Assembly (NCBI RefSeq): GCF_988243305.1
Contig: NZ_OZ547136.1
Reading direction: 5' to 3' (one strand)
Length of the DNA stretch: 64,000 bases
Shown here piece by piece: positions 10,032 through 61,234 of this stretch (the stretch's first letter is position 1; each line of letters opens with the position of its first letter). The notes below the pieces were generated by a model, which was not told the origin of the DNA, made no database searches, and saw nothing but the letters and a program-made list of their open reading frames with translations. A program made the position numbers and the translations under genes.

Positions 10032-10124
10032 GCAGAATATTTTGCTAATAAATGACGTTGGCCAAGGCGGACGGGTAACACGAAATCCTGCGAACTGGCA
10101 AAATGTAAGTGAATAAAAGTAAAA

Positions 10125-10160
10125 ACCCCGTTTGTTGGCAGCAAGCGGGGTTTTGTTTTT
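10125..10160 (+). terminator. Rho-independent terminator downstream of the endolysin
   Basis: CCCCG...CGGGG stem followed by TTTTGTTTTT. Confidence 0.55.
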
Positions 10161-12835: not shown

Positions 12836-13399
12836 GTGCTGACAACGCAAAAACGAAAATTTGCGCTGGCGCTCATGTCCGGGAAAAACAAAACAGCGTC
12901 AGCCATTGCCGCCGGTTATTCGGCGAAGACCGCCAGGGTTAAAGGCTCGCAGCTGGCAAAAGATCCTGAGGTGCTTGCGTTTATAGCCCGTAAACAATGC
13001 GAGACGGTGGAGGTGGATGAGGTTCCTGTTTACCGGCAGAAAAAATCAGAGCAGGAGGATAAACCCCGTCGCCGTGAGGCGGCTGCAATACCACAGCCGG
13101 ACGAAAACAATCTGGAGATGCCACCGTCCGCGGTGATGTCTCCTGGTATTGAATATATGGAGGATGGTCTTCCCGATCCGGTGAAAGCCATGGGGCGGAT
13201 CCTGGTGGAAAACCTCTGCATTGATCCGAAACTGGCACTGGATGCGGCCTGGCGTCTGGCGCAGTTCACGCACCATAAAAAAGGGGATACCGGGAAAAAA
13301 TCGGCAAAAGGTGATGCCGCGAAAAAAGCGGCTAACCGTTTTGCGGTGCCACCGCCCCCCCGACTGGTGGTGAATAACGATAATGAGGGCAACGGATGA
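12836..13399 (+). CDS. Terminase small subunit (P27-family-like)
   Basis: N-terminal helix-turn-helix-like region (KRKFALALMSGKNKTASAIAAGYS); sits directly before the large terminase subunit with a 4-nt overlap. Confidence 0.7.
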   Translation: MLTTQKRKFALALMSGKNKTASAIAAGYSAKTARVKGSQLAKDPEVLAFIARKQCETVEVDEVPVYRQKKSEQEDKPRRREAAAIPQPDENNLEMPPSAVMSPGIEYMEDGLPDPVKAMGRILVENLCIDPKLALDAAWRLAQFTHHKKGDTGKKSAKGDAAKKAANRFAVPPPPRLVVNNDNEGNG

Positions 13400-15057
13400 T
13401 ACCTGTATGGAGCACAGCCTGCCCGGACTGGGCAGAGCGCCTGAAAAAGGGGCTGTCGATTATTCCGGATCCGATTTATCCGGACGAGGCCGCACATGCC
13501 CTGGCGATTTTTAAACAACTGCGGATTGTGGATGCACCTGGTAGCCCTACGTTCGGGGAGTCCTGTGCACCGTGGGTGTTTGACCTGGTGGCGGCCCTGT
13601 TTGGCTCCTACGATGCGCAGACCGGTGTACGCCATATCAAGGAAGTTTTTATCCTTATCCCCAAGAAAAACTCGAAGTCCACGCTGGCCGCGGGGATCAT
13701 GATGACTGCACTGTTACTGAACTGGCGGCAGGCGGCGGGTTACACGATTCTGGCCCCGACTGTGGAGGTGGCGGCCAACGCCTTCAACCCTGCCCGGGAT
13801 ATGGTACGACGTGACGATGATCTGGATGACCTCTGCCAGGTACAGACCCATATCCGGACCATCACCCACCGAGTGACGGACACCACCCTGAAGGTGGTGG
13901 CAGCCGATCCGAATACGGTGTCCGGTATCAAGTCCGTGGGTACGCTGATTGATGAGTTGTGGCTGTTTGGCAAGCAGTGCAAGGCGGAGGACATGTTACG
14001 TGAAGCCATAGGCGGCCTTGCCTCCCGCCCGGAAGGGTTTGTGGTGTATACGACCACCCAGTCGAATGAACCGCCCGCCGGGGTGTTCAGACAGAAACTG
14101 CAGTACGCCCGGGATGTGCGCGACGGCAAAATTCATGATCCGCACTTTCTGCCGGTGATATTTGAACACCCTCCTGAAATGGTGGAAAGCGGGGCTAACC
14201 TGCTGATGGAAAACCTCGCCATGGTCAATCCGAATCTCGGCTATTCAGTGGATGAGGCCTTTCTGTACCGGGAGTACCGTAAAGCCCGGGAAGCCGGTGA
14301 AGAGACATTCCGGGGGTTCATGTCAAAACACGCCAATGTGGAAATTGGTCTTGCCCTGCGCTCTGACCGCTGGGCGGGGGCTGATTTCTGGGAAGAGCAG
14401 GGCCGTTGTATCAGCCTGGACGATATCCTGCGTCGTGCTGATGTGGTGACGGTGGGGATTGACGGCGGAGGGCTGGATGATCTGCTGGGGATGTATGTGA
14501 TTGGGCGTGACCGGGAGACCCGCGAATGGCTGGGCTGGGGCCATGCCTGGGCGCATGAAACCGCGGTGGTCCGACGGAAGAGCGAGGCGTCCCGGTTTCA
14601 GGATCTTGTTGCCTGTGGAGATATGACCATTGTCCGGCGTGTCGGGGATGACACGGCGGAAGTGGCGGAATATGTGCGTCGCATTCATGAGGCTGAGTTA
14701 CTGGACCATATCGGTATTGACCCGTCAGGGGTGGGGCAGATTCTGGATTCACTGGCGGAAGCCGGGATCCCCGACGGAATTGTGGTGGGGATAAGCCAGG
14801 GCTGGAAACTGGGCGGGGCCATTAAAACCACCGAGCGCAAACTGGCTGAAGGGGTGCTGGTGCATGGTGACCAGCCCCTGATGGCCTGGTGTGTCGGCAA
14901 TGCCCGGGTGGAGCCTAAAGGTAACGCCATTCTTATCACCAAACAGGCCAGTGGACGGGGAAAAATTGACCCGCTGATGGCGCTGTTCAATGCGGTCTCC
15001 CTGATGTCCCTTAACCCGGAACCGAAAAAGAAAGAATATGCGGTTTTTTTCATATAA
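13396..15057 (+). CDS. Terminase large subunit
   Basis: 553 aa; Walker A-like ILIPKKNSKST; acidic C-terminal nuclease-like half; size and position. Confidence 0.85.
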   Translation: MIPVWSTACPDWAERLKKGLSIIPDPIYPDEAAHALAIFKQLRIVDAPGSPTFGESCAPWVFDLVAALFGSYDAQTGVRHIKEVFILIPKKNSKSTLAAGIMMTALLLNWRQAAGYTILAPTVEVAANAFNPARDMVRRDDDLDDLCQVQTHIRTITHRVTDTTLKVVAADPNTVSGIKSVGTLIDELWLFGKQCKAEDMLREAIGGLASRPEGFVVYTTTQSNEPPAGVFRQKLQYARDVRDGKIHDPHFLPVIFEHPPEMVESGANLLMENLAMVNPNLGYSVDEAFLYREYRKAREAGEETFRGFMSKHANVEIGLALRSDRWAGADFWEEQGRCISLDDILRRADVVTVGIDGGGLDDLLGMYVIGRDRETREWLGWGHAWAHETAVVRRKSEASRFQDLVACGDMTIVRRVGDDTAEVAEYVRRIHEAELLDHIGIDPSGVGQILDSLAEAGIPDGIVVGISQGWKLGGAIKTTERKLAEGVLVHGDQPLMAWCVGNARVEPKGNAILITKQASGRGKIDPLMALFNAVSLMSLNPEPKKKEYAVFFI

Positions 15058-15083
15058 CCCTGTTCACACTGTAACCATCACGA

Positions 15084-15103
15084 ACCGCTCCGGCGGTTTT
15101 TTT
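15084..15103 (+). terminator. Terminator-like hairpin with T-run between terL and the capsid gene
   Basis: ACCGC-TCCG-GCGGT followed by TTTTTTT, then RBS GGAGG. Confidence 0.45.
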
Positions 15104-15120
15104 ATTTTCAGGAGGCTGAT

Positions 15121-17058
15121 GTGACTCTTAAACGGGCCTGTTCCCTGCTGACGGTGAAATCCTTCAGTGAGGATGAACGGGTGATCACCGGGATTGCGTC
15201 AACGCCTTCTCCGGATCGGGATGGTGACATCCTGGAGCCGGAGGGCGCGGAGTTTGGCAGTGCGATCCCGTTTCTCTGGCAGCATGACCATTCCCGCCCG
15301 GTGGGGCAGTGTACGGTGCGCCGGGTCAGCGAAGGGCTGGAAATCACGGCAACACTGGTGAAGCCCGTACCGGATATGCCGTCGCAACTGGCTGCCCGGC
15401 TGGATGAGGTCTGGGCGGCCATTAAGACCGGGCTGGTCAGGGGGCTGTCCGTGGGCTTCCGTCCCCATGAATACACCTTTCTGGACGGAGGCGGACTGCA
15501 TTTTCTGCGCTGGGAACTGATGGAGGTGTCTGCCGTCACCGTGCCCGCGAATGCGGAATGCACCATCCGGACCATTAAATCTTACGACCGCCCGTTTTCT
15601 GCCGCGTCCGGCAACCGGAAACCGGTGGTGAAAATCGCATCTTCTGCCGGCGCTGCGGCACAGTCAACAACCGTTTTTCATAAGGAAAAGACCATAATGA
15701 ATATTGGCGAACAGATTAAAAGTTTTGAAAACAAGCGTGCAGCGCTGGCAGCCTCCCTTGAGGAGGTCATGACCAAAGCCGCAGAGGAAGGGCGCACGCT
15801 GGATGTGGAGGAGGAAGAGCATTACGACAACACCGCAGCGGAAATCCGTCAGGTGGATGCGCACCTGAAGCGCCTGCGTGAACTGGAAGCCGGTAAGGCC
15901 GCCACGGCGCAGCCGGTGAAACAGGCCGGTAACGGGAATGTGGCCGCGGTGGCTTCTGCGCCGGTGATCCGTGTGGAGCAGAAACTGGATAAGGGGATTG
16001 GCTTCGCCCGCTTTGCCAAATCGCTGGCTGCGGCTAAAGGCGTCCGATCTGAAGCCCTGGAAGTGGCCCGTCGTCAGTATCCGGATGACAGTCGTCTGCA
16101 TCATGTCCTGAAATCGGCAGTGGGCGCGGGGACCACCACGGATCCGCAGTGGGCAGGCAGCCTGTCTGAATATCAGGAATACGCACAGGACTTTATTGAT
16201 TACCTGCGTCCGCAGACCATTATCGGGCGATTTGGTCAGGGCGGGATCCCTGCACTTCGTCAGGTGCCATTCAATATCCGTGTGCACGCCCAGGTGTCCG
16301 GCGGTGCTGCCGGCTGGGTGGGTGAGGGTAAGGCAAAACCCCTGACGAAGTTTGATTTTGAATCCATCACCTTCAGTCATGCGAAGGTGTCGGCCATTGC
16401 GGTACTGACGGAAGAATTGATCCGTTTTTCCAGTCCGGCTGCTGATGCACTGGTCCGTAATGCGCTGGCGGAAGCGGTGGTGGCGCGTCTGGATACAGAC
16501 TTTGTGGACCCGAAAAAAGCCGCAGTGGCAGATGTCTCCCCGGCGTCCATCACCCATGATGTGAAGGGCACGGCATCAACCGGTAACCCGGATGCGGATG
16601 CAGAGGCTGCGTTTGGACAGTTTGTGGCAGCAAACCTGCAGCCCACCGGTGCGGTCTGGCTGATGTCCAGCACCAATGCCCTGGCACTGTCCATGCGTAA
16701 AAATGCGCTGGGTCAGAAGGAATACCCGGACATGACCCTGCTGGGTGGCTCCTTCCAGGGGCTGCCGGTGATTGTCTCCCAGTACGTGGGTGACCAGCTG
16801 GTGCTGGTGAATGCCCCGGATATTTATCTGGCGGATGACGGCGGCGTGGCAGTGGATATGTCCCGCGAGGCATCACTGGAAATGCAGTCTGAGCCGACCG
16901 GCGACAGTACCACGCCGTCCCCGGTGGAGCTGGTTTCCATGTTCCAGACAGGCAGCGTGGCCATCCGTGCGGAGCGCTGGATCAACTGGCGTCGTCGCCG
17001 TACTGCGGCGGTGGCGGTGATCACCGGAGTGAACTACGGCAGTGCGTCCGGCGGCTGA
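15121..17058 (+). CDS. Prohead protease (HK97/S78 family) fused to scaffold-like region and major capsid protein
   Basis: N-terminus ITGIASTPSPDRDGDILEPEGAEF...PFLWQHD protease signature, central coiled-coil acidic segment, C-terminal HK97-fold capsid-like region. Confidence 0.75.
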   Translation: MTLKRACSLLTVKSFSEDERVITGIASTPSPDRDGDILEPEGAEFGSAIPFLWQHDHSRPVGQCTVRRVSEGLEITATLVKPVPDMPSQLAARLDEVWAAIKTGLVRGLSVGFRPHEYTFLDGGGLHFLRWELMEVSAVTVPANAECTIRTIKSYDRPFSAASGNRKPVVKIASSAGAAAQSTTVFHKEKTIMNIGEQIKSFENKRAALAASLEEVMTKAAEEGRTLDVEEEEHYDNTAAEIRQVDAHLKRLRELEAGKAATAQPVKQAGNGNVAAVASAPVIRVEQKLDKGIGFARFAKSLAAAKGVRSEALEVARRQYPDDSRLHHVLKSAVGAGTTTDPQWAGSLSEYQEYAQDFIDYLRPQTIIGRFGQGGIPALRQVPFNIRVHAQVSGGAAGWVGEGKAKPLTKFDFESITFSHAKVSAIAVLTEELIRFSSPAADALVRNALAEAVVARLDTDFVDPKKAAVADVSPASITHDVKGTASTGNPDADAEAAFGQFVAANLQPTGAVWLMSSTNALALSMRKNALGQKEYPDMTLLGGSFQGLPVIVSQYVGDQLVLVNAPDIYLADDGGVAVDMSREASLEMQSEPTGDSTTPSPVELVSMFQTGSVAIRAERWINWRRRRTAAVAVITGVNYGSASGG

Positions 17059-17102
17059 GTCTGATAAGGAGGACGGGAGGCGTGCGCCTCCCGTAACAGG
17101 TT

Positions 17103-17324
17103 ATGGCAAAGATCCGATATCTGCAGGGCACGCATGATGCCCGGGCCGGGGATATCCGTGATGTGGCACAGCCGTGTGCGGAGGTGCTGGTTCGCCTGGG
17201 AAAGGCGGAGTACATCACGGTGCGACGTCCGGCAGGTCAGAAAAAGAAACGTGATGCGGAGCATGGCGAATGTGGAACCTTTTACGGCGAACCCGAAAAA
17301 ACCAGAAATCAGGACGTGACGTAA
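17103..17324 (+). CDS. Small hypothetical protein between the capsid and portal genes
   Basis: 73-aa ORF; overlaps the portal start by 55 nt; uncertain. Confidence 0.3.
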   Translation: MAKIRYLQGTHDARAGDIRDVAQPCAEVLVRLGKAEYITVRRPAGQKKKRDAEHGECGTFYGEPEKTRNQDVT

Positions 17325-27129: not shown

Positions 27130-27873
27130 ATGACACAGACTGAATCAGCGATTCTGGCGCATGCCCGGCGGTGTGCGCCTGCGGAGTCGTGCGGCTTCGT
27201 GATAAGCACGCCGGAGGGGGAGTGGTATATCCCTTGTGTGAATATTTCTGCAGAGCCGGAGGCGTATTTTCGTATCGCACCGGAAGACTGGCTGCGGGCA
27301 GAGATGCAGGGGGAGATTGTGGCACTGGTCCACAGTCATCCCGGTGGGCTGCCCTGGCTGAGCGAGGCTGACCGGCGGCTGCAGATAAAAAGCGCACTGC
27401 CCTGGTGGCTGGTCTGCCGGGGTGACATTCACAAATTCCGCTGTGTGCCACATCTGACAGGACGGCGCTTTGAGCACGGGGTGACGGACTGTTACACGCT
27501 GTTCCGGGATGCTTATCATCTGGCGGGGACTGAAATGCCGGATTTTCATCGCGAGGATGACTGGTGGCGCAACGGTCAGAACCTTTACCTGGACAATATG
27601 GCGGTCACCGGCTTTTACCGGGTGCCCCTGTCCTCTGCACAGGCGGGCGATATTCTGCTGTGCTGCTTTGGTGCTTCGGTACCGAACCATGCCGCCATTT
27701 ACTGCGGCAACGGTGAGCTGCTTCACCATCTGCCTGAACAACTGAGTAAACGGGAGAGGTATTCCGAAAAATGGCAACGACGAACGCATTCTGTCTGGCG
27801 TCACCGCCACTGGCACGCATCTGCCTTCACGGGGATTTACAACGATTTGGCCGCCGCCTCAGCCTGTATGTGA
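27130..27873 (+). CDS. Tail assembly protein K (JAB/MPN plus NlpC/P60-like domains)
   Basis: HSHPGG JAMM-like motif and Cys/His peptidase-like C-terminus; start chosen at the ATG with the best context. Confidence 0.75.
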   Translation: MTQTESAILAHARRCAPAESCGFVISTPEGEWYIPCVNISAEPEAYFRIAPEDWLRAEMQGEIVALVHSHPGGLPWLSEADRRLQIKSALPWWLVCRGDIHKFRCVPHLTGRRFEHGVTDCYTLFRDAYHLAGTEMPDFHREDDWWRNGQNLYLDNMAVTGFYRVPLSSAQAGDILLCCFGASVPNHAAIYCGNGELLHHLPEQLSKRERYSEKWQRRTHSVWRHRHWHASAFTGIYNDLAAASACM

Positions 27874-28451
27874 ACACGGCAGCGGAAGCCATCCGGGCGC
27901 TGTCGTTACAGGTGCCGGGCTTTCGCCGTCAGATGAACGAAGGCTGGTACCAGATACGTATTGCCGGTTATGACACGGCACCGGAGGCGGTGTACGCCCG
28001 TCTTCACGAACAGCTGGGTGAGGGAACGGTCATCCATATTGTGCCGCGACTGGCCGGGGCCGGAAAGGGTGGACTGCAGATTGTGCTGGGGGCGGCAGCC
28101 ATCGTGGGCTCTTTCTTCACTGCCGGGGCATCAATGGCGTTATGGGGTTCAGCCCTGGCAGCCGGTGGTTTTTCTGCCACCACGATGCTGTTTTCACTTG
28201 GAGCCAGCATGATTCTGGGCGGTGTGGCCCAGATGCTGGCCCCGAAGGCAAAAACACCGGATTACCGCGCAACGGATAACGGCAGACAGAACACGTACTT
28301 TTCCTCGCTGGATAACATGATTGCCCAGGGGAACCCGATGCCGGTGCCTTACGGGGAAATGCTGGTTGGCTCCCGCCGTATATCCCAGGACATCAGCACC
28401 CGTGATGAAGGCGGGGGCGGAACGGTCGTGGTTATCGGGCGACAGGGATAA
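27771..28451 (+). CDS. Tail assembly protein I
   Basis: 226 aa; glycine/alanine-rich hydrophobic C-terminal half; overlaps the K 3' end as in lambda. Confidence 0.7.
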   Translation: MATTNAFCLASPPLARICLHGDLQRFGRRLSLYVNTAAEAIRALSLQVPGFRRQMNEGWYQIRIAGYDTAPEAVYARLHEQLGEGTVIHIVPRLAGAGKGGLQIVLGAAAIVGSFFTAGASMALWGSALAAGGFSATTMLFSLGASMILGGVAQMLAPKAKTPDYRATDNGRQNTYFSSLDNMIAQGNPMPVPYGEMLVGSRRISQDISTRDEGGGGTVVVIGRQG

Positions 28452-28793
28452 AACATAAAAAAATCCCGCAGTGATCGCGGAGCTGCGGGGACAGACAAAT
28501 GAAGATCAATGTTAAGGAGTTGTTTTTGTTACTCGGGCAAAAAAACACTAACGCAGCGAAATTATAAGCGCCACAGTCAGTGTGTGAAAATGTGAAGATA
28601 TTCAGAATTTTTATGCCATTACCGGTTTTAACCAACAGGATTATCGGTGGGCATGAAAGAAAACCCCGGTATCTGCTGATACCGGGGTTTCTCTTTAGCA
28701 TGGCAGAAATGTGTTTCATGCTTTTCGGACGAAGGATATCCGACTTCTGTACGGAATGGCAAGTGGCGGTTAATTTATTCAGGGGAAGGCTGT

Positions 28794-31700
28794 ATGGGAA
28801 AAGGTGGCGGTAAGGCACACACGCCTCGTGAGGCGAAGGATAATCTCAAATCCACGCAGATGATGAGCGTGATTGATGCGATTGGTGAGGGACCGATAGA
28901 TGGCCCGGTGAAAGGCCTGCAGAGTATTCTGGTGAACAAAACCCCGCTGACGGACACGGACGGTAATCCCGTGATACACGGTGTGACCGCGGTCTGGCGT
29001 GCCGGGGAGCAGGAGCAGACACCACCGGAAGGCTTTGAGTCCTCCGGCTCTGAAACTGTACTGGGTGTCGAAGTGACCAGGGCAAAACCGGTAACACGCA
29101 CCATTACGTCAGCGAACATTGACCGCCTGCGGGTGACCTTCGGGGTGCAGTCACTGGTGGAGACCACGTCAAAGGGTGACCGTAATCCGTCCTCTGTCCG
29201 TCTGCTGATTCAGTTACAGCGTAACGGTAACTGGGTGACAGAAAAGGATGTCACCATTAACGGCAAGACCACCTCACAGTTCCTGGCCTCGGTGATTCTG
29301 GATAATCTGCCTCCCCGCCCCTTTAACATCCGGATGGTCAGGGAGACGGCGGACAGCACCACGGACCAGCTGCAGAACAGAACGCTGTGGTCGTCATACA
29401 CCGAAATCATCGATGTGAAACAGTGCTACCCGAACACGGCCATTGTGGGGATGCAGGTGGATGCGGAGCAGTTTGGTGGTCAGCAGATGACGGTGAACTA
29501 CCATATCCGCGGTCGCATCATCCAGGTGCCGTCAAACTATGACCCGGAAAAACGCACGTACAGTGGTATCTGGGACGGCAGTCTGAAACCGGCATACAGC
29601 AACAATCCGGCCTGGTGTCTGTGGGACATGCTGACTCACCCGCGCTACGGCATGGGAAAACGTCTGGGGGCGGCGGATGTGGACAAGTGGGCGCTGTATG
29701 CCATCGGGCAGTACTGCGACCAGATGGTGCCGGATGGCTTCGGGGGCACCGAGCCGCGGATGACCTTCAATGCGTACCTGGCACAACAGCGTAAGGCGTG
29801 GGATGTTCTCAGTGATTTCTGCTCGGCGATGCGCTGTATGCCGGTATGGAACGGCCAGATGCTGACGTTTGTTCAGGACCGCCTGTCGGATGTGGTGTGG
29901 CCGTACACCAACAGCGATGTGGTGGTGGATGATAACGGCGTGGGGTTCCGCTACAGCTTCAGTGCCCTGAAGGACCGGCACGCGGCGGTGGAGGTGAATT
30001 ACACCGACCCGCAGAACGGCTGGCAGACCTCCACGGAACTGGTGGAAGACCCGGAAGCCATACTGCGCTACGGACGCAACCTGCTGAAGATGGACGCGTT
30101 CGGCTGTACCAGCCGCGGTCAGGCCCACCGTGCCGGACTGTGGGTGATAAAGACCGAACTGCTGGAAACGCAGACGGTGGATTTCACGCTCGGGTCTCAG
30201 GGGCTGCGGCACACACCCGGTGACATTATTGAAATCTGTGATAATGACTATGCCGGGACCCTGACCGGCGGACGTGTCCTGTCCATTGATGCTGCCACCC
30301 GCACCCTGACGCTGGACCGTGAGGTTACCCTGCCGGAGACAGGTACATCGGCGGTGAACCTGATTAACGGCAGCGGTAAGCCGGTGAGTGTGGACATCAC
30401 CGCACACCCCGCGCCGGACCGGATACAGGTCAGTACCCTGCCTGATGGTGTGGAGACATACGGGGTGTGGGGACTCTCCCTGCCGTCACTGCGCCGTCGC
30501 CTGTTCCGCTGTGTCTCCATCCGGGAAAACACGGACGGCACCTTTGCCATCACGGCGGTGCAGCACGTACCGGAAAAAGAAGCCATCGTGGATAACGGTG
30601 CCCGCTTTGAGCCGCAGTCAGGTTCCCTGAACAGCGTCATCCCACCGGCAGTGCAGCACCTGACGGTGGAGGTGAGCGCAGCTGACGGCCGGTATCTGGC
30701 GCAGGCGAAATGGGACACGCCGCGGGTGGTGAAGGGTGTGCGCTTCAGTCTGCGCCTGACCAGTGGTAAGGGAACGGATGCCAGACTGGTGACCACCGCC
30801 ATCACCGCAGACACGGAGCACCGTTTCAGCGGCCTGCCGCTCGGGGAATACACCCTGACGGTGCGGGCGATAAACAGCTATGGCCAGCAGGGTGAACCTG
30901 CCACCACCACCTTCCGGATTGCCGCACCGGCAGCACCGTCGCGGATTGAGCTGACGCCGGGCTATTTTCAGATAACCGCAACGCCACATCTTGCCGTTTA
31001 TGACCCGACGGTACAGTTTGAGTTCTGGTTCTCGGAAAAGCGGATTGCGGATATCAGGCAGGTTGAAACCGCAGCCCGCTATCTTGGCTCGGCGCTGTAC
31101 TGGATAGCTGCCAGTATCAATATCAAACCGGGCCATGATTATTATTTTTATATCCGCAGTGTGAATACTGTTGGCAAATCGGCATTCGTGGAGGCTGTCG
31201 GTCGGGCGAGCGATGATGCGGAAGGTTACCTGGATTTTTTCAAAGGAGAAATCGGGAAAACACATCTGGCCCAGGAGCTGTGGACGCAGATTGATAACGG
31301 TCAGCTTGCGCCGGACCTGGCTGAAATCAGGACGTCCATTACGAATGTCAGCAATGAAATCACGCAGACCGTCAATAAAAAACTGGAAAATCAGAGTGCG
31401 GCAATCCAGCAGATACAGAAAGTTCAGGTTGATACAAATAATAACCTGAACAGCATGTGGGCCGTGAAACTGCAGCAGATGCAGGACGGACGCCTTTATA
31501 TTGCGGGTATCGGTGCCGGTATTGAGAATACGCCAGCAGGAATGCAGAGTCAGGTGCTGCTGGCGGCAGACAGGATTGCGATGATTAATCCTGCGAATGG
31601 CAACACAAAGCCGATGTTTGTTGGTCAGGGCGATCAGATATTTATGAATGAAGTGTTCCTGAAATATCTGACGGCTCCCACCATTACCAGCGGCGGTAAT

Positions 31701-32267
31701 CCTCCGGCATTTTCCCTGACACCGGACGGGCGGCTGACGGCGAAAAATGCCGATATCAGCGGTAACGTGAATGCGAACTCCGGGACGCTCAACAACGTCA
31801 CGATTAACGAGAACTGTCGGGTTCTGGGAAAATTGTCCGCGAACCAGATTGAAGGCGATCTCGTTAAAACAGTGGGCAAAGCTTTCCCCCGGGACTCCCG
31901 TGCACCGGAGCGGTGGCCATCAGGGACCATTACCGTCAGGGTTTATGACGATCAGCCGTTTGACCGGCAGATTGTTATTCCGGCGGTGGCATTCAGCGGC
32001 GCTAAACATGAGAAAGAGCATACTGATATTTACTCCTCATGCCGTCTGATAGTGCGGAAAAACGGTGCTGAAATTTATAACCGTACCGCGCTGGATAATA
32101 CGCTGATTTACAGTGGTGTTATTGATATGCCTGCCGGTCACGGTCACATGACACTGGAGTTTTCGGTGTCAGCATGGCTGGTGAATAACTGGTATCCCAC
32201 AGCAAGTATCAGCGATTTGCTGGTTGTGGTGATGAAGAAAGCCACCGCAGGCATCAGTATCAGCTGA
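28794..32267 (+). CDS. Host specificity / central tail fibre protein J
   Basis: 1157 aa; lambda J-like N-terminal and central regions; divergent C-terminus. Confidence 0.9.
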
Positions 32268-32286
32268 ATTTTATAACCCATATACG

Positions 32287-32311
32287 GGCGCCAGAAATGG
32301 CGCCTTTTTTA
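32287..32311 (+). terminator. Rho-independent terminator after J
   Basis: GGCGCCA-GAAA-TGGCGCC followed by TTTTTT. Confidence 0.65.
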
Positions 32312-32334
32312 TTGCAGAAAAGCGAGAGGTAATT

Positions 32335-32934
32335 ATGCGTAAAGTTTGTGCAGCCATTTTGTCCGCAGCCATCTGTCTGTCCGTATCCGGTGCGCCTGCA
32401 TGGGCGTCTGAACATCAGTCCACACTGAGCGCGGGGTATCTTCATGCCCGTACGAACGCTCCCGGCAGCGATAATCTGAACGGGATTAACGTGAAATACC
32501 GTTATGAGTTTACGGACGCGCTGGGGCTGATTACGTCCTTCAGTTATGCCAATGCTGAGGATGAGCAAAAAACGCACTACAGCGATACCCGCTGGCATGA
32601 AGATTCCGTGCGTAACCGCTGGTTCAGCGTGATGGCGGGGCCGTCTGTACGCGTGAATGAATGGTTCAGCGCGTATGCGATGGTGGGTGTGGCTTACAGC
32701 CGTGTGTCGACTTTCTCCGGGGATTATCTCCGCGTAACTGACAACAAGGGGAAAACGCACGACGTGCTGACCGGAAGTGATGACGGTCGCCACAGCAACA
32801 CGTCTCTGGCGTGGGGGGCTGGCGTGCAGTTTAACCCGACCGAATACGTGACCATTGACCTTGCTTATGAAGGTTCCGGTAGTGGCGACTGGCGAACGGA
32901 TGCATTTATTGTTGGTATCGGATACCGTTTCTGA
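32335..32934 (+). CDS. lom: Lom/Ail-family outer membrane beta-barrel protein
   Basis: Signal peptide, alternating beta-strand pattern, C-terminal AFIVGIGYRF; canonical lambda moron position after J. Confidence 0.85.
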   Translation: MRKVCAAILSAAICLSVSGAPAWASEHQSTLSAGYLHARTNAPGSDNLNGINVKYRYEFTDALGLITSFSYANAEDEQKTHYSDTRWHEDSVRNRWFSVMAGPSVRVNEWFSAYAMVGVAYSRVSTFSGDYLRVTDNKGKTHDVLTGSDDGRHSNTSLAWGAGVQFNPTEYVTIDLAYEGSGSGDWRTDAFIVGIGYRF

Positions 32935-33038
32935 CAACAGACGCCGATTTATCTTCTGTAAATATTGTTATGATACGCAGGTTCATCCACCTTATGGGGT
33001 GAACTGCGTTTGAGGAAACGTAAAGTTACACTGTCCTG

Positions 33039-33071
33039 AAGCCCGTGGCGTCACTGCTGCGGGCTTTTTTT
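33039..33071 (+). terminator. Rho-independent terminator after lom
   Basis: AAGCCCG...CGGGCTT stem followed by TTTTTTT. Confidence 0.6.
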
Positions 33072-33085
33072 ATTGGTGGAAAAGT

Positions 33086-36000
33086 ATGACAGTAAAAATT
33101 TCTGGCGTGCTTAAAGATGGCACAGGAAAACCAGTACAGAACTGCACCATTGTGCTGAAGGCCAGACGAACCAGCAGCACGGTGGTGGTGAACACAGTTG
33201 CCTCAGAAAACCCGGATGAAGCCGGGCGTTATACAATGGACGTCGAGTATGGTCAGTACAGCGTCAGTCTGTTGGTGGAGGGATTCCCGCCGTCACACGC
33301 CGGGACCATCACCGTGTATGAAGACTCACAACCGGGTACGCTGAATGATTTTCTCGGTGCCATGACGGAGGATGATGCCCGTCCGGAGGCACTGCGCCGT
33401 TTTGAAGTGATGGTGGAAGAGGTGGCGCGTAACGCGTCCGCAGTGGCACAGAACACGGCAGCCGCGAAGAAGTCAGCCGGCGATGCCAGCACATCAGCCC
33501 GTGAGGCGGCAACCCATGCGACTGATGCTGCAGGCTCAGCACGTGCAGCCAGCACGTCAGCCGGACAGGCCGCGTCGTCGGCTCAGTCAGCGTCTTCCAG
33601 CGCAGGAACGGCATCAATAAAGGCCACTGAAGCCTCAAAAAGTGCTGCTGCTGCAGAGTCATCAAAAAGCGCGGCAGCTACCAGCGCCAGTGCCGCGAAA
33701 ACGTCAGAAACGAATGCCGCAGCATCACAAAAATCGGCAGCCACTTCTGCATCCACAGCGACCACGAAGGCGTCAGAAGCTGCCACCTCGGCACGGGGTG
33801 CGGCGGCCTCAAAAGAGGCAGCGAAATCTTCAGAAACGAATGCATCCTCGAGCGCCAGCAGCGCAGCTTCCTCGGCAACGGCGACAGCAAATTCTGCGAA
33901 GGCGGCAAAAACGTCCGAGACGAACGCTAAGTCTTCTGAGACGGCAGCGGAACAGAGCGCCTCAGCTGCGGCAGGTTCAAAAACAGCGGCTGCATTATCT
34001 GCCAGTGCCGCGTCAACAAGTGCCGGGCAGGCCTCAGCCAGTGCCACCGCTGCCGGAAAGTCGGCAGAAAGTGCCGCCTCGTCTGCTTCAACAGCCACAA
34101 CGAAGGCTGGCGAAGCCACTGAACAGGCCAGTGCAGCAGCGAGGTCTGCTTCCGCAGCGAAGACATCCGAGACGAACGCGAAAGCGTCGGAAACCAGCGC
34201 AGAATCCTCAAAAACGGCTGCCGCATCGTCCGCTAGTTCGGCGGCGTCATCGGCATCATCGGCGTCAGCTTCAAAAGATGAGGCGACCAGACAGGCGTCA
34301 GCAGCGAAGGGCAGCGCCACGACAGCATCCACGAAGGCGACAGAGGCAACTGGCAGTGCGACGGCGGCAGCACAGAGCAAAAGTACGGCGGAATCCGCGG
34401 CAACGCGCGCCGAGACAGCGGCAAAACGGGCAGAGGATATTGCATCCGCCGTGGCGCTTGAGGATGCAAGTACGACGAAAAAGGGGATAGTACAGCTCAG
34501 CAGTGCAACCAACAGCACATCTGAAACGCTTGCCGCGACACCGAAGGCAGTTAAAGCAGCGAATGACAATGCGAATGGCAGGGTACCATCTAACCGAAAA
34601 GTTAACGGGAAAGCACTGACTGCGGATATAACATTAACACCGAAAGATATTGGCACTTTAAATTCAGTAACGATCTCTTTCTCTGGCGGGGCAGGGTGGT
34701 TCAAACTGGCAACGGTTACCATGCCACAAGCGAGTTCCATCGTTTACATCGCATTGATTGGTGGCGCTGGTTACAACGTCGGCTCCCCACAGCAGGCAGG
34801 CATTTCAGAACTGGTTCTACGAGCAGGCAATGGAAAGCCCAAAGGGATTACCGGAGCTTTGTGGAAGCGTACAGCCGTCGGATTAACGAATTTCGCCTGG
34901 ATCAACACATCCGGCGATACATATGATATTTACGTTGAGATTGGCAATTATGCGACGAGTGTAAATATCCATTGGGATTGTACTACAAATGCGTCAGTTT
35001 CTATTTATACCTCGCCAACATATTCAGCGAGTAAGCCTTCCAGCGTTACCGGTGGTGTTGTTTATACGATGTATAGCTCACATCAGAAACCTACACCATC
35101 AGATATTGGAGCGCTGCCAACGACTGGAGGGACTATTTCAGGTCCGTTGTCTGTTACTGATGGGATCACCGGGGCACTGAAGGGGAACGCCGATACCGCG
35201 ACGAAACTTGCGGCAGTCCCAAAAATTAACGGTGTTAAGTTTGATGGCTCGGCGGATATTAACCTCACGCCGGAAAATATTGGTGCATTTGCCCGACGTT
35301 CGACGGGGGCTTATGCGGATTCGGATGGAGCCGTTCCCTGGAATGCCGAATCAGGCGCTTACAATGTCACCCGCTCTGGCGACAGCTATATTCTGGTTAA
35401 CTTCTATACCGGAGTCGGAAGTTGCCGGACCCTGCAGATGAAGGCGCATTACAGAAATCGTGGTCTGTTCTACCGTTCTTCAAGAGACGGTTATGGTTTT
35501 GAGGAAGACTGGGCAGAAGTTTATACCTCGAAAAATCTTCCACCAGAAAGCTACCCAGTCGGCGCACCAATCCCGTGGCCATCAGATACCGTTCCGTCTG
35601 GTTATGCCCTGATGCAGGGGCAGACTTTTGACAAATCTGCTTACCCGAAACTTGCAGCTGCTTATCCGTCAGGCGTGATCCCTGATATGCGTGGCTGGAC
35701 GATTAAGGGCAAACCTGCCAGTGGTCGAGCCGTATTATCTCAGGAACAGGACGGCATTAAATCGCACACCCACAGCGCCAGTGCATCCAGTACGGATTTG
35801 GGGACGAAAACCACGTCGTCGTTTGATTATGGTACTAAGTCTTCAAATGCCACTGGTGACCATAACCACAGCCGAGGCACTATGGAAATTACCGGTACTC
35901 TCGGTTACTTCAGAAGTGATAGCGGTAATTTCTATACAGCAAGTGGAGCATTTACACTGGGTGGCTCTGCGCCAGCCCATGGATTTACGGGCTCTCAATT

Positions 36001-36214
36001 TACTTATGGTGTTCCTGTAAACTTTAACGCTTCCAGAACCTGGTCTGGTGCCACAAGCACTACAGGTAACCATGCGCACTCTGTTCCAATTGGTGCTCAT
36101 GCGCACTCCGTTGCGATTGGTTCACATGGACACACCATCACCGTTAACGCTGCTGGTAACGCGGAAAACACCGTCAAAAACATCGCATTTAACTATATTG
36201 TGAGGCTTGCATAA
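33086..36214 (+). CDS. stf: Side tail fibre protein (Stf-like)
   Basis: 1042 aa; Ala/Ser-rich repeat region with repeated (K)T/SSETNA motif; C-terminal HxH repeats ([23 protein letters not shown]). Confidence 0.85.
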
Positions 36215-36798
36215 TGGCATTCAGAATGAGTGAACAAGCACGGACCATAAAAATTTATAATCTGCTGGCCGGAACTAATGAATTTATTGGTGAAGGTGAC
36301 GCATATATTCCGCCTCATACAGGTCTGCCAGCAAACAGTACCGATATTGCACCACCAGATATTCCTGCTGGCTTTGTGGCTGTTTTCAACAGTGATGAGT
36401 CATCGTGGCATCTCTTTGAAGACCATCGGGGTAAAACGGTTTATGACGTAGCGTCAGGGGACGAGTTATTTATTTCTGAACTCGGTCCGTTACCGGAAAA
36501 TGTTACCTGGTTATCGCCGGAAGGGGAGTTTCAGAAGTGGAACGGCACAGCCTGGGTGAAGGATACGGAAGCAGAAAAACTGTTCCGGATCCGGGAGGCG
36601 GAAGAAACAAAAAACAACCTGATGCAGGTAGCCAGTGAGCATATTGCGCCGCTTCAGGATGCTGCAGATCTGGAAATTGCAACGGAGGAAGAAACCTCAT
36701 TGCTGGAAGCCTGGAAAAAGTATCGGGTATTGCTGAACCGTGTTGATACATCAACAGCACCTGATATTGAGTGGCCTGCAAATCCTGTCAGGGAGTAA
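36214..36798 (+). CDS. tfa: Tail fibre assembly protein (Tfa)
   Basis: 194 aa; TAATG overlap with stf; Tfa-like sequence. Confidence 0.8.
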
Positions 36799-46869: not shown

Positions 46870-46896
46870 AAAAAAAAGCCCGCTCATCAGGCGGGC
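46870..46896 (-). terminator. trp attenuator (3:4 terminator hairpin plus U-run)
   Basis: On the minus strand: AGCCCGCCTGATGAGCGGGCTTTTTTTT between trpL and trpE. Confidence 0.95.
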
Positions 46897-46939
46897 TGGG
46901 TATCTGATTGCTTTACGCATGGTGAATACACTGCCCGTT

Positions 46940-46984
46940 TCAGGAAGTGCGCCACCAACCTTTCAGTACGAAAATTGCTTTCAT
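46940..46984 (-). CDS. trpL: trp operon leader peptide
   Basis: Minus-strand ORF encodes [14 protein letters not shown] with tandem Trp codons. Confidence 0.97.
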
Positions 46985-60862: not shown

Positions 60863-61234
60863 TTATCATCATTCTTATTACCCATTTTTAATGAATTACA
60901 GGGCTTTTAATACACCGCAGCAATAACAGGTTGAGTTATCTCAACACAAAGTAATAACCGTTAAAGGTGTAGCCTATGATCAACACAAATATGAAATATT
61001 GGTCCTGGATGGGTGCATTTTCTCTGTCGATGCTCTTCTGGGCCGAACTCCTCTGGATCATTACTCACTGATCCCTGACCCCGCTGCGGCGGGGTTTTCA
61101 TTTGCTTTGCCACAAGGTTTCTCCTCTTTTATCAATTTGGGTTGTTATCAAATCGTTACGCGATGTTTGTGTTATCTTTAATATTCACCCTGAAGAGAAT
61201 CAGGGCTTCGCAACCCTGTCATTAAGGAGGAGCT

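Follow-up and report, generated by a model that had tools for sequence, protein, structure and literature searches.

Why should an operon that is transcribed by polymerase carrying an antiterminator hold, between its structural genes, sequences that look like transcription terminators? The question is raised by a stretch of 64,000 nucleotides from contig NZ_OZ547136.1 (assembly GCF_988243305.1; the whole stretch is referred to as the window), an Escherichia coli chromosome segment with a lambdoid prophage at the ompW/trp locus and a lambda/HK97-like late operon. The original prediction, made from the letters alone, placed hairpins followed by a T-run before the capsid, major tail and tape-measure genes and further ones after J and lom; it suggested that they set transcript stoichiometry as partial terminators or serve as processing or stability elements, with read-through depending on Q. 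All five are indeed found on the sense strand, and they are real, non-random and conserved intrinsic-terminator sequences. We give about even chances to the reading that they are true intrinsic (Rho-independent) terminators, which insulate genes in the lysogen and are read through by polymerase loaded with Q.

The first element (HP1, 15082-15103) is a 7-bp hairpin, GAACCGC-TCCG-GCGGTTT, followed by more T residues. It begins 25 nt past the terL stop codon in the 63-nt gap between terL and the protease-capsid gene, and is followed by ATTTTC-AGGAGG-CTGAT-GTG of that protease-scaffold-capsid fusion gene. The second (HP2, 21350-21370) lies in the 64-nt gap between the tail-terminator and major tail genes; its stem of 5 bp, all GC, reads CCCGC-CGCGT-GCGGG and runs via T6 into ATTATC-AGGAGG-CAGA-ATG of the major tail gene. 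The third (HP3, 22804-22826), (GA)GAACCGC-TGAG-GCGGTT(TT) with 7-9 bp and a T-run, lies in the 47-nt gap between T and the tape-measure gene, whose ribosome-binding site and start follow. The J/lom gap holds an 8-bp hairpin, GGGCGCC-AGAAA-TGGCGCCT with T6 (32286-32311), and the gap between lom and the tail-fibre gene a 12-bp stem with T8 (33038-33074) that forms the 3' boundary of the lom moron. The free-energy calculation proposed with the original prediction gave dG values of -10.3, -7.5, -8.4 to -10.3, -15.1 and -20.0, respectively. All five combine a compact GC-rich stem, a loop of 4-6 nt and T6-T8 directly 3', the anatomy of an intrinsic terminator, and all are non-coding and on the transcribed strand, in plus-strand gaps, where they start 7-103 nt past a stop codon.

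Chance hairpins beside T-rich intergenic sequence could in principle account for such a set, an explanation that we regard as virtually negligible. It can draw on a loose consensus scan, which returned 21 sites versus 16.5 +/- 3.9 in shuffles and thus no overall enrichment, and on the unexceptional folding energies of the gaps around HP1 and HP2 (whole-gap z of -1.1 and +0.2, versus -2.4 to -3.6 for the other three). The whole-gap z-score is not useful as a detector for HP1 and HP2, which are singled out by architecture and location and not by energy. Against chance stands a strict scan for compact stems with an adjacent T-run on the plus strand of 12836-36798. It yielded eight matches, where 20 dinucleotide shuffles averaged 1.8 (range 0-4), and six of the eight were intergenic, where intergenic sequence makes up 866 of 23,963 nt (3.6%; binomial P = 5.9e-8). 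On the minus strand the same scan found nine matches, eight of them inside genes. Moreover, every one of the seven gaps of at least 40 nt in the 24-kb structural block contains a stable hairpin, the genes otherwise abutting or overlapping. The location of the elements, together with the conservation of their position across distant phages, effectively refutes the chance explanation.

This conservation was followed in about 200 metagenomic and viral-contig loci, collected by a pattern scan and a protein-anchored scan in which relatives were sampled by anchoring on the downstream genes; a sample anchored on the upstream gene consisted entirely of loci with the same downstream gene. The stem of HP1 is kept in seven close-relative variants with TCCG or TGCG as loop. 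The core stem of HP2, CCCGC/GCGGG, is kept across at least ten variants with the loops CGCGT, CTGATG, TTAATG, TTCG, CGAA, TCCG and GCT, and the gene upstream of it occurs in at least three contexts, at least one of them without detectable homology. For HP3 we found ten stem/loop variants, all of which fold (dG -9 to -15) and have T6-T9 next to the stem; pairing is preserved in ACCGC/GCGGT, ACCTGC/GCAGGT, ACCCGC/GCGGGT and ACCTCGC/GCGGGGT. A combination of MAFFT and RNAalifold called covariation for a single pair of HP3, a count that understates the variation because the alignment was not structure-aware and misplaced the stem indels; the variants were then folded singly. At the HP2 junction of 134 close relatives, the share of variable alignment columns is 57% in the spacer that separates the hairpin from the stop codon, 13% in the hairpin and 8% in the U-tract and Shine-Dalgarno (SD) sequence. 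The T6-T9 run directly 3' of the stem is invariant across the variants of HP1, HP2 and HP3. The capsid-distal hairpin lacks a T-run in most lineages, so that the run appears to have been selected specifically where it is present. As far as sequence comparison can tell, the pattern indicates selection on the structures and, at the five reported sites, on the T-run as well.

The elements also resemble one another. The stem and first T-run of HP1 are exactly those of HP3, and the resulting 23-nt pattern GAACCGC-N4-GCGGTTTTTTTA (within 15082-15119 and at 22805-22827) has these two matches in 64 kb and none in shuffles. HP1 and HP2 in turn have a 22-nt string of T-run and SD in common, TTTTTTATTwTCAGGAGGCwGA (within 15082-15119 in HP1; 21365-21386 in HP2), which is found nowhere else in the window. 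HP1 thus looks chimeric, with the stem of HP3 and the tail and SD of HP2, which suggests either an exchange of cassettes or convergence on one optimum.

Such exchange would fit the idea that the elements are evolutionary by-products, that is, scars or boundaries of cargo insertion and recombination which are harmless under Q antitermination and have no present function. The T/tape-measure junction is in line with this, as it is a cargo slot in relatives, just as the I/J gap is. The space between gene T and the terminator there holds diverse genes, with open reading frames (ORFs) of 62-137 aa, where the 47-nt gap of the window has no ORF. These cargo genes encode lipoproteins of 137, 121, 130 and 78 aa, a secreted or membrane protein of 94 aa and, in HK97, gp15 (loci L061, L127/L144, L193, L146, L083 at 13503-13787 and L086 at 8203-8391, versus 22798-22844 of the window). 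In total at least five unrelated cargo genes plus HK97 gp15 occupy the junction, and the constant part is the terminator and the tape-measure gene's ribosome-binding site. In the window the slot is empty and the terminator has been kept. HK97 gp15 is the founding 'moron', located between the tail chaperone and tape-measure genes and expressed from the prophage (PMC3594210), and morons are described as equipped with a promoter and a terminator of their own, so as to be expressed from a repressed prophage (PMC3594210). Likewise, lom has a terminator on either side (after J and after lom), and the one at the T/tape-measure junction closes a cargo slot at its 3' end; unlike morons, HP1, HP2 and, in this prophage, HP3 come without a cargo gene. 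A consensus scan gave no plus-strand sigma-70-like site near HP1, HP2, HP3 or lom, bearing in mind that such scans miss many promoters. The absence of two of the elements from lambda (see below) also agrees with the by-product idea. Nevertheless, we consider it quite improbable: the stems, T-runs and SD sequences are far better conserved than the adjoining spacer, and pairing has been kept through two-sided changes across lineages. Moreover, cargo was never present in the terL/capsid and tail-terminator/V gaps of the loci examined. At the latter junction this holds for about 190 loci, all of which retain the hairpin, in a gap of 58-68 nt.

Elements of this kind are not new; they have long been annotated in HK97 and are visible in lambda. 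The HK97 record (NC_002167; Juhala et al. 2000, J Mol Biol 299:27) already lists 'putative terminator' features inside the late operon. They lie at 3309-3335 (portal/protease), 5192-5213 (after the capsid gene, the same junction as 17073-17094 of the window), 6692-6719 (tail terminator/major tail, syntenic with HP2), 7443-7462 (after the major tail gene), 8398-8422 (before the tape-measure gene, syntenic with HP3), 13799-13824 (before I) and 15107-15129 (before J, a junction that is occupied in the window too). Around the HP2 counterpart the flanking ribosome-binding site and start are homologous to those of the window (e.g. CAGGAG-CAG-ATGTCTGC), and the combination of sense-strand hairpin and T-run is alike. 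HK97 differs in its stem and loop sequences and in the extra element after the major tail gene. Moreover, its element before the tape-measure gene follows the gp15 moron, where the window has an empty slot. HK97 has no counterpart of HP1 in a terL/capsid gap because its gene order differs.

In lambda, a hairpin with T-run lies between D and E (6098-6117), immediately upstream of E, the major capsid gene, and is analogous to HP1. Others are found after E (7163-7180, E/FI) and before J (15466-15479), and two flank lom: 18920-18935 between J and lom, and 19612-19633 between lom and orf-401, the counterpart of 33038-33074. These lambda hairpins may correspond to the t'J terminators of Luk and Szybalski (1983). 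The late operon of lambda is likewise Q-dependent, and its hairpin sequences are unrelated to those of the window; the strict scan gave no hairpin at U/V or T/H. The same scan located a hairpin with T-run before the major tail and tape-measure genes in Klebsiella phage ST13-OXA48phi12.2, and at these two positions as well as after the capsid gene in phage 569R6. A search for distant relatives of the capsid-fusion head module brought up only phages of the type found in enterohaemorrhagic E. coli (EHEC; at least 95% identity) and one Burkholderia phage (39%), in which terL and the protease gene overlap, with nothing equivalent to HP1. A predicted intrinsic terminator has also been described inside the single-promoter, antitermination-dependent late operon of the P22-like phage L (PMC8022706). 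Phage L differs in that its virion module is that of a P22-like podovirus and in having a single element, located where the procapsid module ends.

What could terminators achieve in such a position? The gene for a Q-type late antiterminator (2605-3426, plus strand; Pfam PF03589 Antiterm, E = 2e-49) lies upstream, which defines the late operon as Q-dependent: everything from terminase through tail fibre is on the plus strand downstream of Q. Q loads onto the polymerase at the late promoter and, as a nozzle on its RNA exit channel, prevents terminator hairpins from forming (PMC9388147; bioRxiv 10.1101/651190). Q-dependent read-through of elements placed downstream of Q is therefore the natural expectation. 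Since Q makes polymerase termination-deficient, a terminator inside the operon should act only on polymerase without Q, and it is this consideration that favours the insulator reading. Such polymerase, not loaded with Q at pR', would stem from spurious intragenic initiation, from read-through or from promoters of cargo genes (morons) that are active in the lysogen. On encountering an element, it would let the hairpin form on the U-tract and release its RNA. In the prophage this would keep silent the genes with strong translation, namely those for capsid, tail tube and tape measure/tail tip, and would insulate each cargo slot from the sequence downstream of it. Once the prophage is induced, polymerase loaded with Q would allow no hairpin in its exit channel and read through all elements, resulting in one long late transcript. 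The unit of hairpin, U-tract and SD would then be a cassette attached to the downstream gene. This reading builds on the anatomy of the elements, on the strand and the places in which they occur, on their enrichment, on the conservation of position and structure and on the Q gene; that unmodified polymerase terminates at them, that polymerase loaded with Q passes them and that insulation is of benefit is what it supposes in addition. It is further supported by the T/tape-measure junction, where the cargo genes of relatives precede the same terminator, and by the description of morons as units with promoter and terminator. The paper on phage L offers the insulation idea and partial termination as alternatives (PMC8022706).

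Several observations weigh against insulation. The stems of HP1 and HP2 are short (dG -10.3 and -7.5) and their gaps fold no better than shuffles, so that both elements may terminate weakly. A promoter consensus scan of the block found only one plus-strand sigma-70-like site (27491), so that a need for insulation is hypothetical. The U-tract directly adjoins a strong SD, which would equally suit a role as translational enhancer or standby site. Because sampling was anchored on the downstream genes, the co-segregation of the elements with these genes is seen from one direction. Finally, the lack of U/V and T/H hairpins in lambda implies that the elements are dispensable for a lambdoid phage.

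The weakness of HP1 and HP2 would be compatible with partial terminators that attenuate lytic transcription and so set transcript stoichiometry. For this there are precedents: in phiX174 the terminators TJ, TF and TG block 20-40% of transcription (bioRxiv 10.1101/2020.03.05.979765), and weak terminators are known from LUZ7 as well as T7 (bioRxiv 10.1101/2022.03.18.484859). Two hairpins of the window, HP3 and the one in the I/J gap, precede low-copy genes (tape measure and tail tip). HP1 and HP2, however, are located immediately upstream of the protease-capsid fusion gene and the major tail gene, which encode the highest-copy proteins, and attenuation there would go against the required ratios. 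Stoichiometry-setting terminators are typically found downstream of abundant genes, T-phi of T7 being an example. The phiX174 terminators TJ, TF, TG and TH are likewise intrinsic terminators inside a structural gene cluster, but they follow abundant genes and act on unmodified polymerase, whereas here two elements precede such genes and a processive antiterminator is present. Only HP3 and the I/J hairpin fit the arrangement of the phiX174/T7 type. In addition, the operon is Q-dependent and Q-loaded polymerase is termination-deficient. Discoordinate yields of lambda late proteins, moreover, were reportedly put down to post-transcriptional control by Ray and Pearson in 1975. We therefore consider partial termination unlikely. 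Of the original interpretation the full terminator anatomy and the position in a late operon downstream of Q stand, and the link to Q read-through is reasonable, while stoichiometry-setting fits poorly with the placement of HP1 and HP2 before the most abundant genes.

A function at the level of the mRNA, also foreseen originally, deserves more weight, although we hold it to be a tentative alternative. The hairpins would be exonuclease barriers or processing boundaries in the late transcript that bracket the abundant cistrons, and the U-tract next to the SD would be a standby site or an S1-binding enhancer; the selected function would be differential stability and translation, not termination. 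In fact, both the capsid gene and the V-G-T segment are bracketed by hairpins (HP1 and a GC hairpin around the former, HP2 and HP3 around the latter). The unit of hairpin, U-tract and SD stays with the downstream gene despite different upstream neighbours, and the 22-nt string common to HP1 and HP2 comprises precisely U-tract and SD. Hairpin-dependent differences in segment stability have precedents in papBA, puf and malEFG. A stability hairpin, however, needs no perfect T6-T9 directly 3', yet this run is invariant at HP1, HP2 and HP3, and a 3'-protective hairpin upstream of a capsid or tail gene would stabilise the low-copy genes that precede it.

The observation that suits this mRNA-level explanation best is the hairpin after the major capsid gene, which was present in every one of the 11 phages examined (lambda and the Burkholderia phage among them), with unrelated sequences and mostly without a T-run. 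In the window it is a GC hairpin of 9 bp without T-run (17073-17094, plus strand; dG -17.8, gap z -3.1), one of two gap hairpins that the original prediction had missed, the other being that at 28661-28690 in the I/J gap. It sits between an SD-like AAGGAGG (17066-17072) and the ATG (17103) of the next gene. GC-stable, free of a U-tract, conserved in position and placed after a highly expressed cistron, it has the sequence characteristics of a 3' stabiliser. As it has no U-tract, a function in the mRNA, as 3' stabiliser and/or as a bridge from SD to start codon, is more probable for it than termination. The distance from AAGGAGG to ATG is 30 nt, which folding of the hairpin would shorten to about 8 nt (a split-SD arrangement); this layout is also seen in HK97 and HK97-like variants, and not in lambda or the Burkholderia phage.

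Termination and mRNA-level functions could also be combined. The units might be portable, dual-purpose cassettes that move with the downstream gene by mosaic recombination, acting on polymerase without Q as 'Q locks' right before the genes with the strongest translation, and in the Q transcript as structural insulator, standby site or segment stabiliser that would boost these genes. We judge this rather doubtful; if true, the near-identity of the stems of HP1 and HP3 and of the tail and SD of HP1 and HP2 would represent an exchange of cassette halves within the genome. The various readings are not mutually exclusive.

Besides the five elements and the post-capsid hairpin, the structural block holds several others. 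A weak hairpin with a T-rich run (21309-21336, plus strand) overlaps the stop codon of the tail-terminator gene and precedes HP2, perhaps as a weak terminator in tandem; in one relative it takes a compensatory form (GATCAC/GTGATC), and the WGPS2 type has lost it. The hairpin with T5 inside gene M (26282-26306, plus strand) is most likely background, since it is coding and has no counterpart in the M genes of lambda and HK97; a weak hairpin in J (31950) is also compatible with background. In the I/J gap, which measures 342 nt (28452-28793), a perfect 13-bp hairpin (28661-28690; z -4.8) is T-rich on both sides and thus terminator-like in both directions. Its T-run is interrupted (TTTCTCTTT), unlike those of the five reported elements.

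The same gap contains an antisense unit (28457-28588, minus strand), in which TTCACA-16-TATAAT (28588..28561) resembles a promoter and 28481..28465 plus T7 forms a terminator. It is a candidate for an antisense RNA of about 95 nt, predicted from its layout, and falls outside the sense-strand set. Compared with a lineage of 91% identity, promoter and terminator are identical and the body of about 70 nt is highly divergent. The gap sequence is present in 1,611 of 5,426 complete E. coli genomes and annotated in none. The antisense unit had no Rfam match and is absent from the Hfq-bound EcOnc RNAs listed for Sakai Sp12. The possibility that one of the hairpins or the antisense unit is the terminator of the prophage small RNA HnrS (EcOnc10-12; bioRxiv 10.1101/2025.11.27.690950) was considered and rejected. 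The coordinates of HnrS (Tree 2014 supplement) fall in Sakai Sp12 near terS and a DUF3950 gene, the 200 nt in question gave no BLAST match in the window, and the I/J gap of Sp12 has no EcOnc entry. In Stx2a_WGPS2 (locus L002) an IS66-family element is inserted in the I/J gap (18699-21034), consistent with the gap being a permissive insertion site.

Within 14900-33200 there was no Rfam match at gathering level. The small RNA isrK (RF01394, an Hfq-binding RNA of Gifsy-1) was tried as an identity for HP3 and discarded: it scored 27.1 bits at 22759-22826, below the gathering threshold of 50 bits, and the match, of full model length, is carried by the terminator stem and U-run, with non-standard pairs in the middle helix. 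The lom/tail-fibre gap has, ahead of its terminator, an extended -10-like TGTTATGAT (32966-32974) as well as a strong 5' hairpin (about 32975-33008), and these two and the terminator make up a layout of about 95 nt resembling a small RNA or a leader; this is a reading by eye, and the consensus scan called no promoter there. Rfam matches at gathering level elsewhere in the window are the sok antitoxin RNA (396-571), STnc180 (60903-61105) and IS009 (36557-36755, inside the tail-fibre assembly gene). The Trp leader is found at 46870-46963 on the minus strand.

Upstream of the structural block, between Q and terS, the strict scan picked up further sense-strand terminator-like hairpins at 3509-3530, 3837-3860, 6208-6235, 8797-8829 and 10122-10160. 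The first begins about 80 nt past the Q stop codon and is a candidate tR', as is the second; the third coincides with the 3' end of an Rfam STnc100 match (6049-6238). Genes for tRNA-Met and tRNA-Arg lie inside the late operon at 5100-5352.

The prophage is closest to phage vB_EcoS-783R2 (99%), followed by PPompW and Shiga toxin (Stx)-converting phages (92-95%). Its gene map combines annotation carried over from two records with Pfam, and all late genes listed here are on the plus strand. The head genes are terS (12836-13399), terL (13396-15057), the protease-scaffold-capsid fusion (15121-17058), a small ORF (17103-17324) and portal (17357-19855), followed by four head-tail genes (to 21322). 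The tail genes are major tail (V, 21387-22103), G and T (to 22797), tape measure (22845-26087), M, L, K and I (to 28451), J (28794-32267), the classical moron lom (32335-32934) and tail fibre (33086-36214). The portal ORF encodes 832 aa, with the Pfam portal domain restricted to residues 25-353; no family was assigned to the C-terminal part of about 450 aa, and Stx2a_WGPS2 annotates the same region as two 'portal' genes.

Phage late operons under the control of antitermination commonly contain terminators between their genes, and published genome papers state that the role of these is experimentally untested; the present case is added comparative support. If the elements are insulators, this would explain how costly, self-assembling structural genes are silenced in a prophage while the cargo embedded among them is expressed, and would also account for the recurrence of cargo slots at fixed junctions. 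This may be relevant to the prophages of EHEC and enteropathogenic E. coli (EPEC), which have virulence cargo in the same regions, and to the annotation of prophage transcription units.

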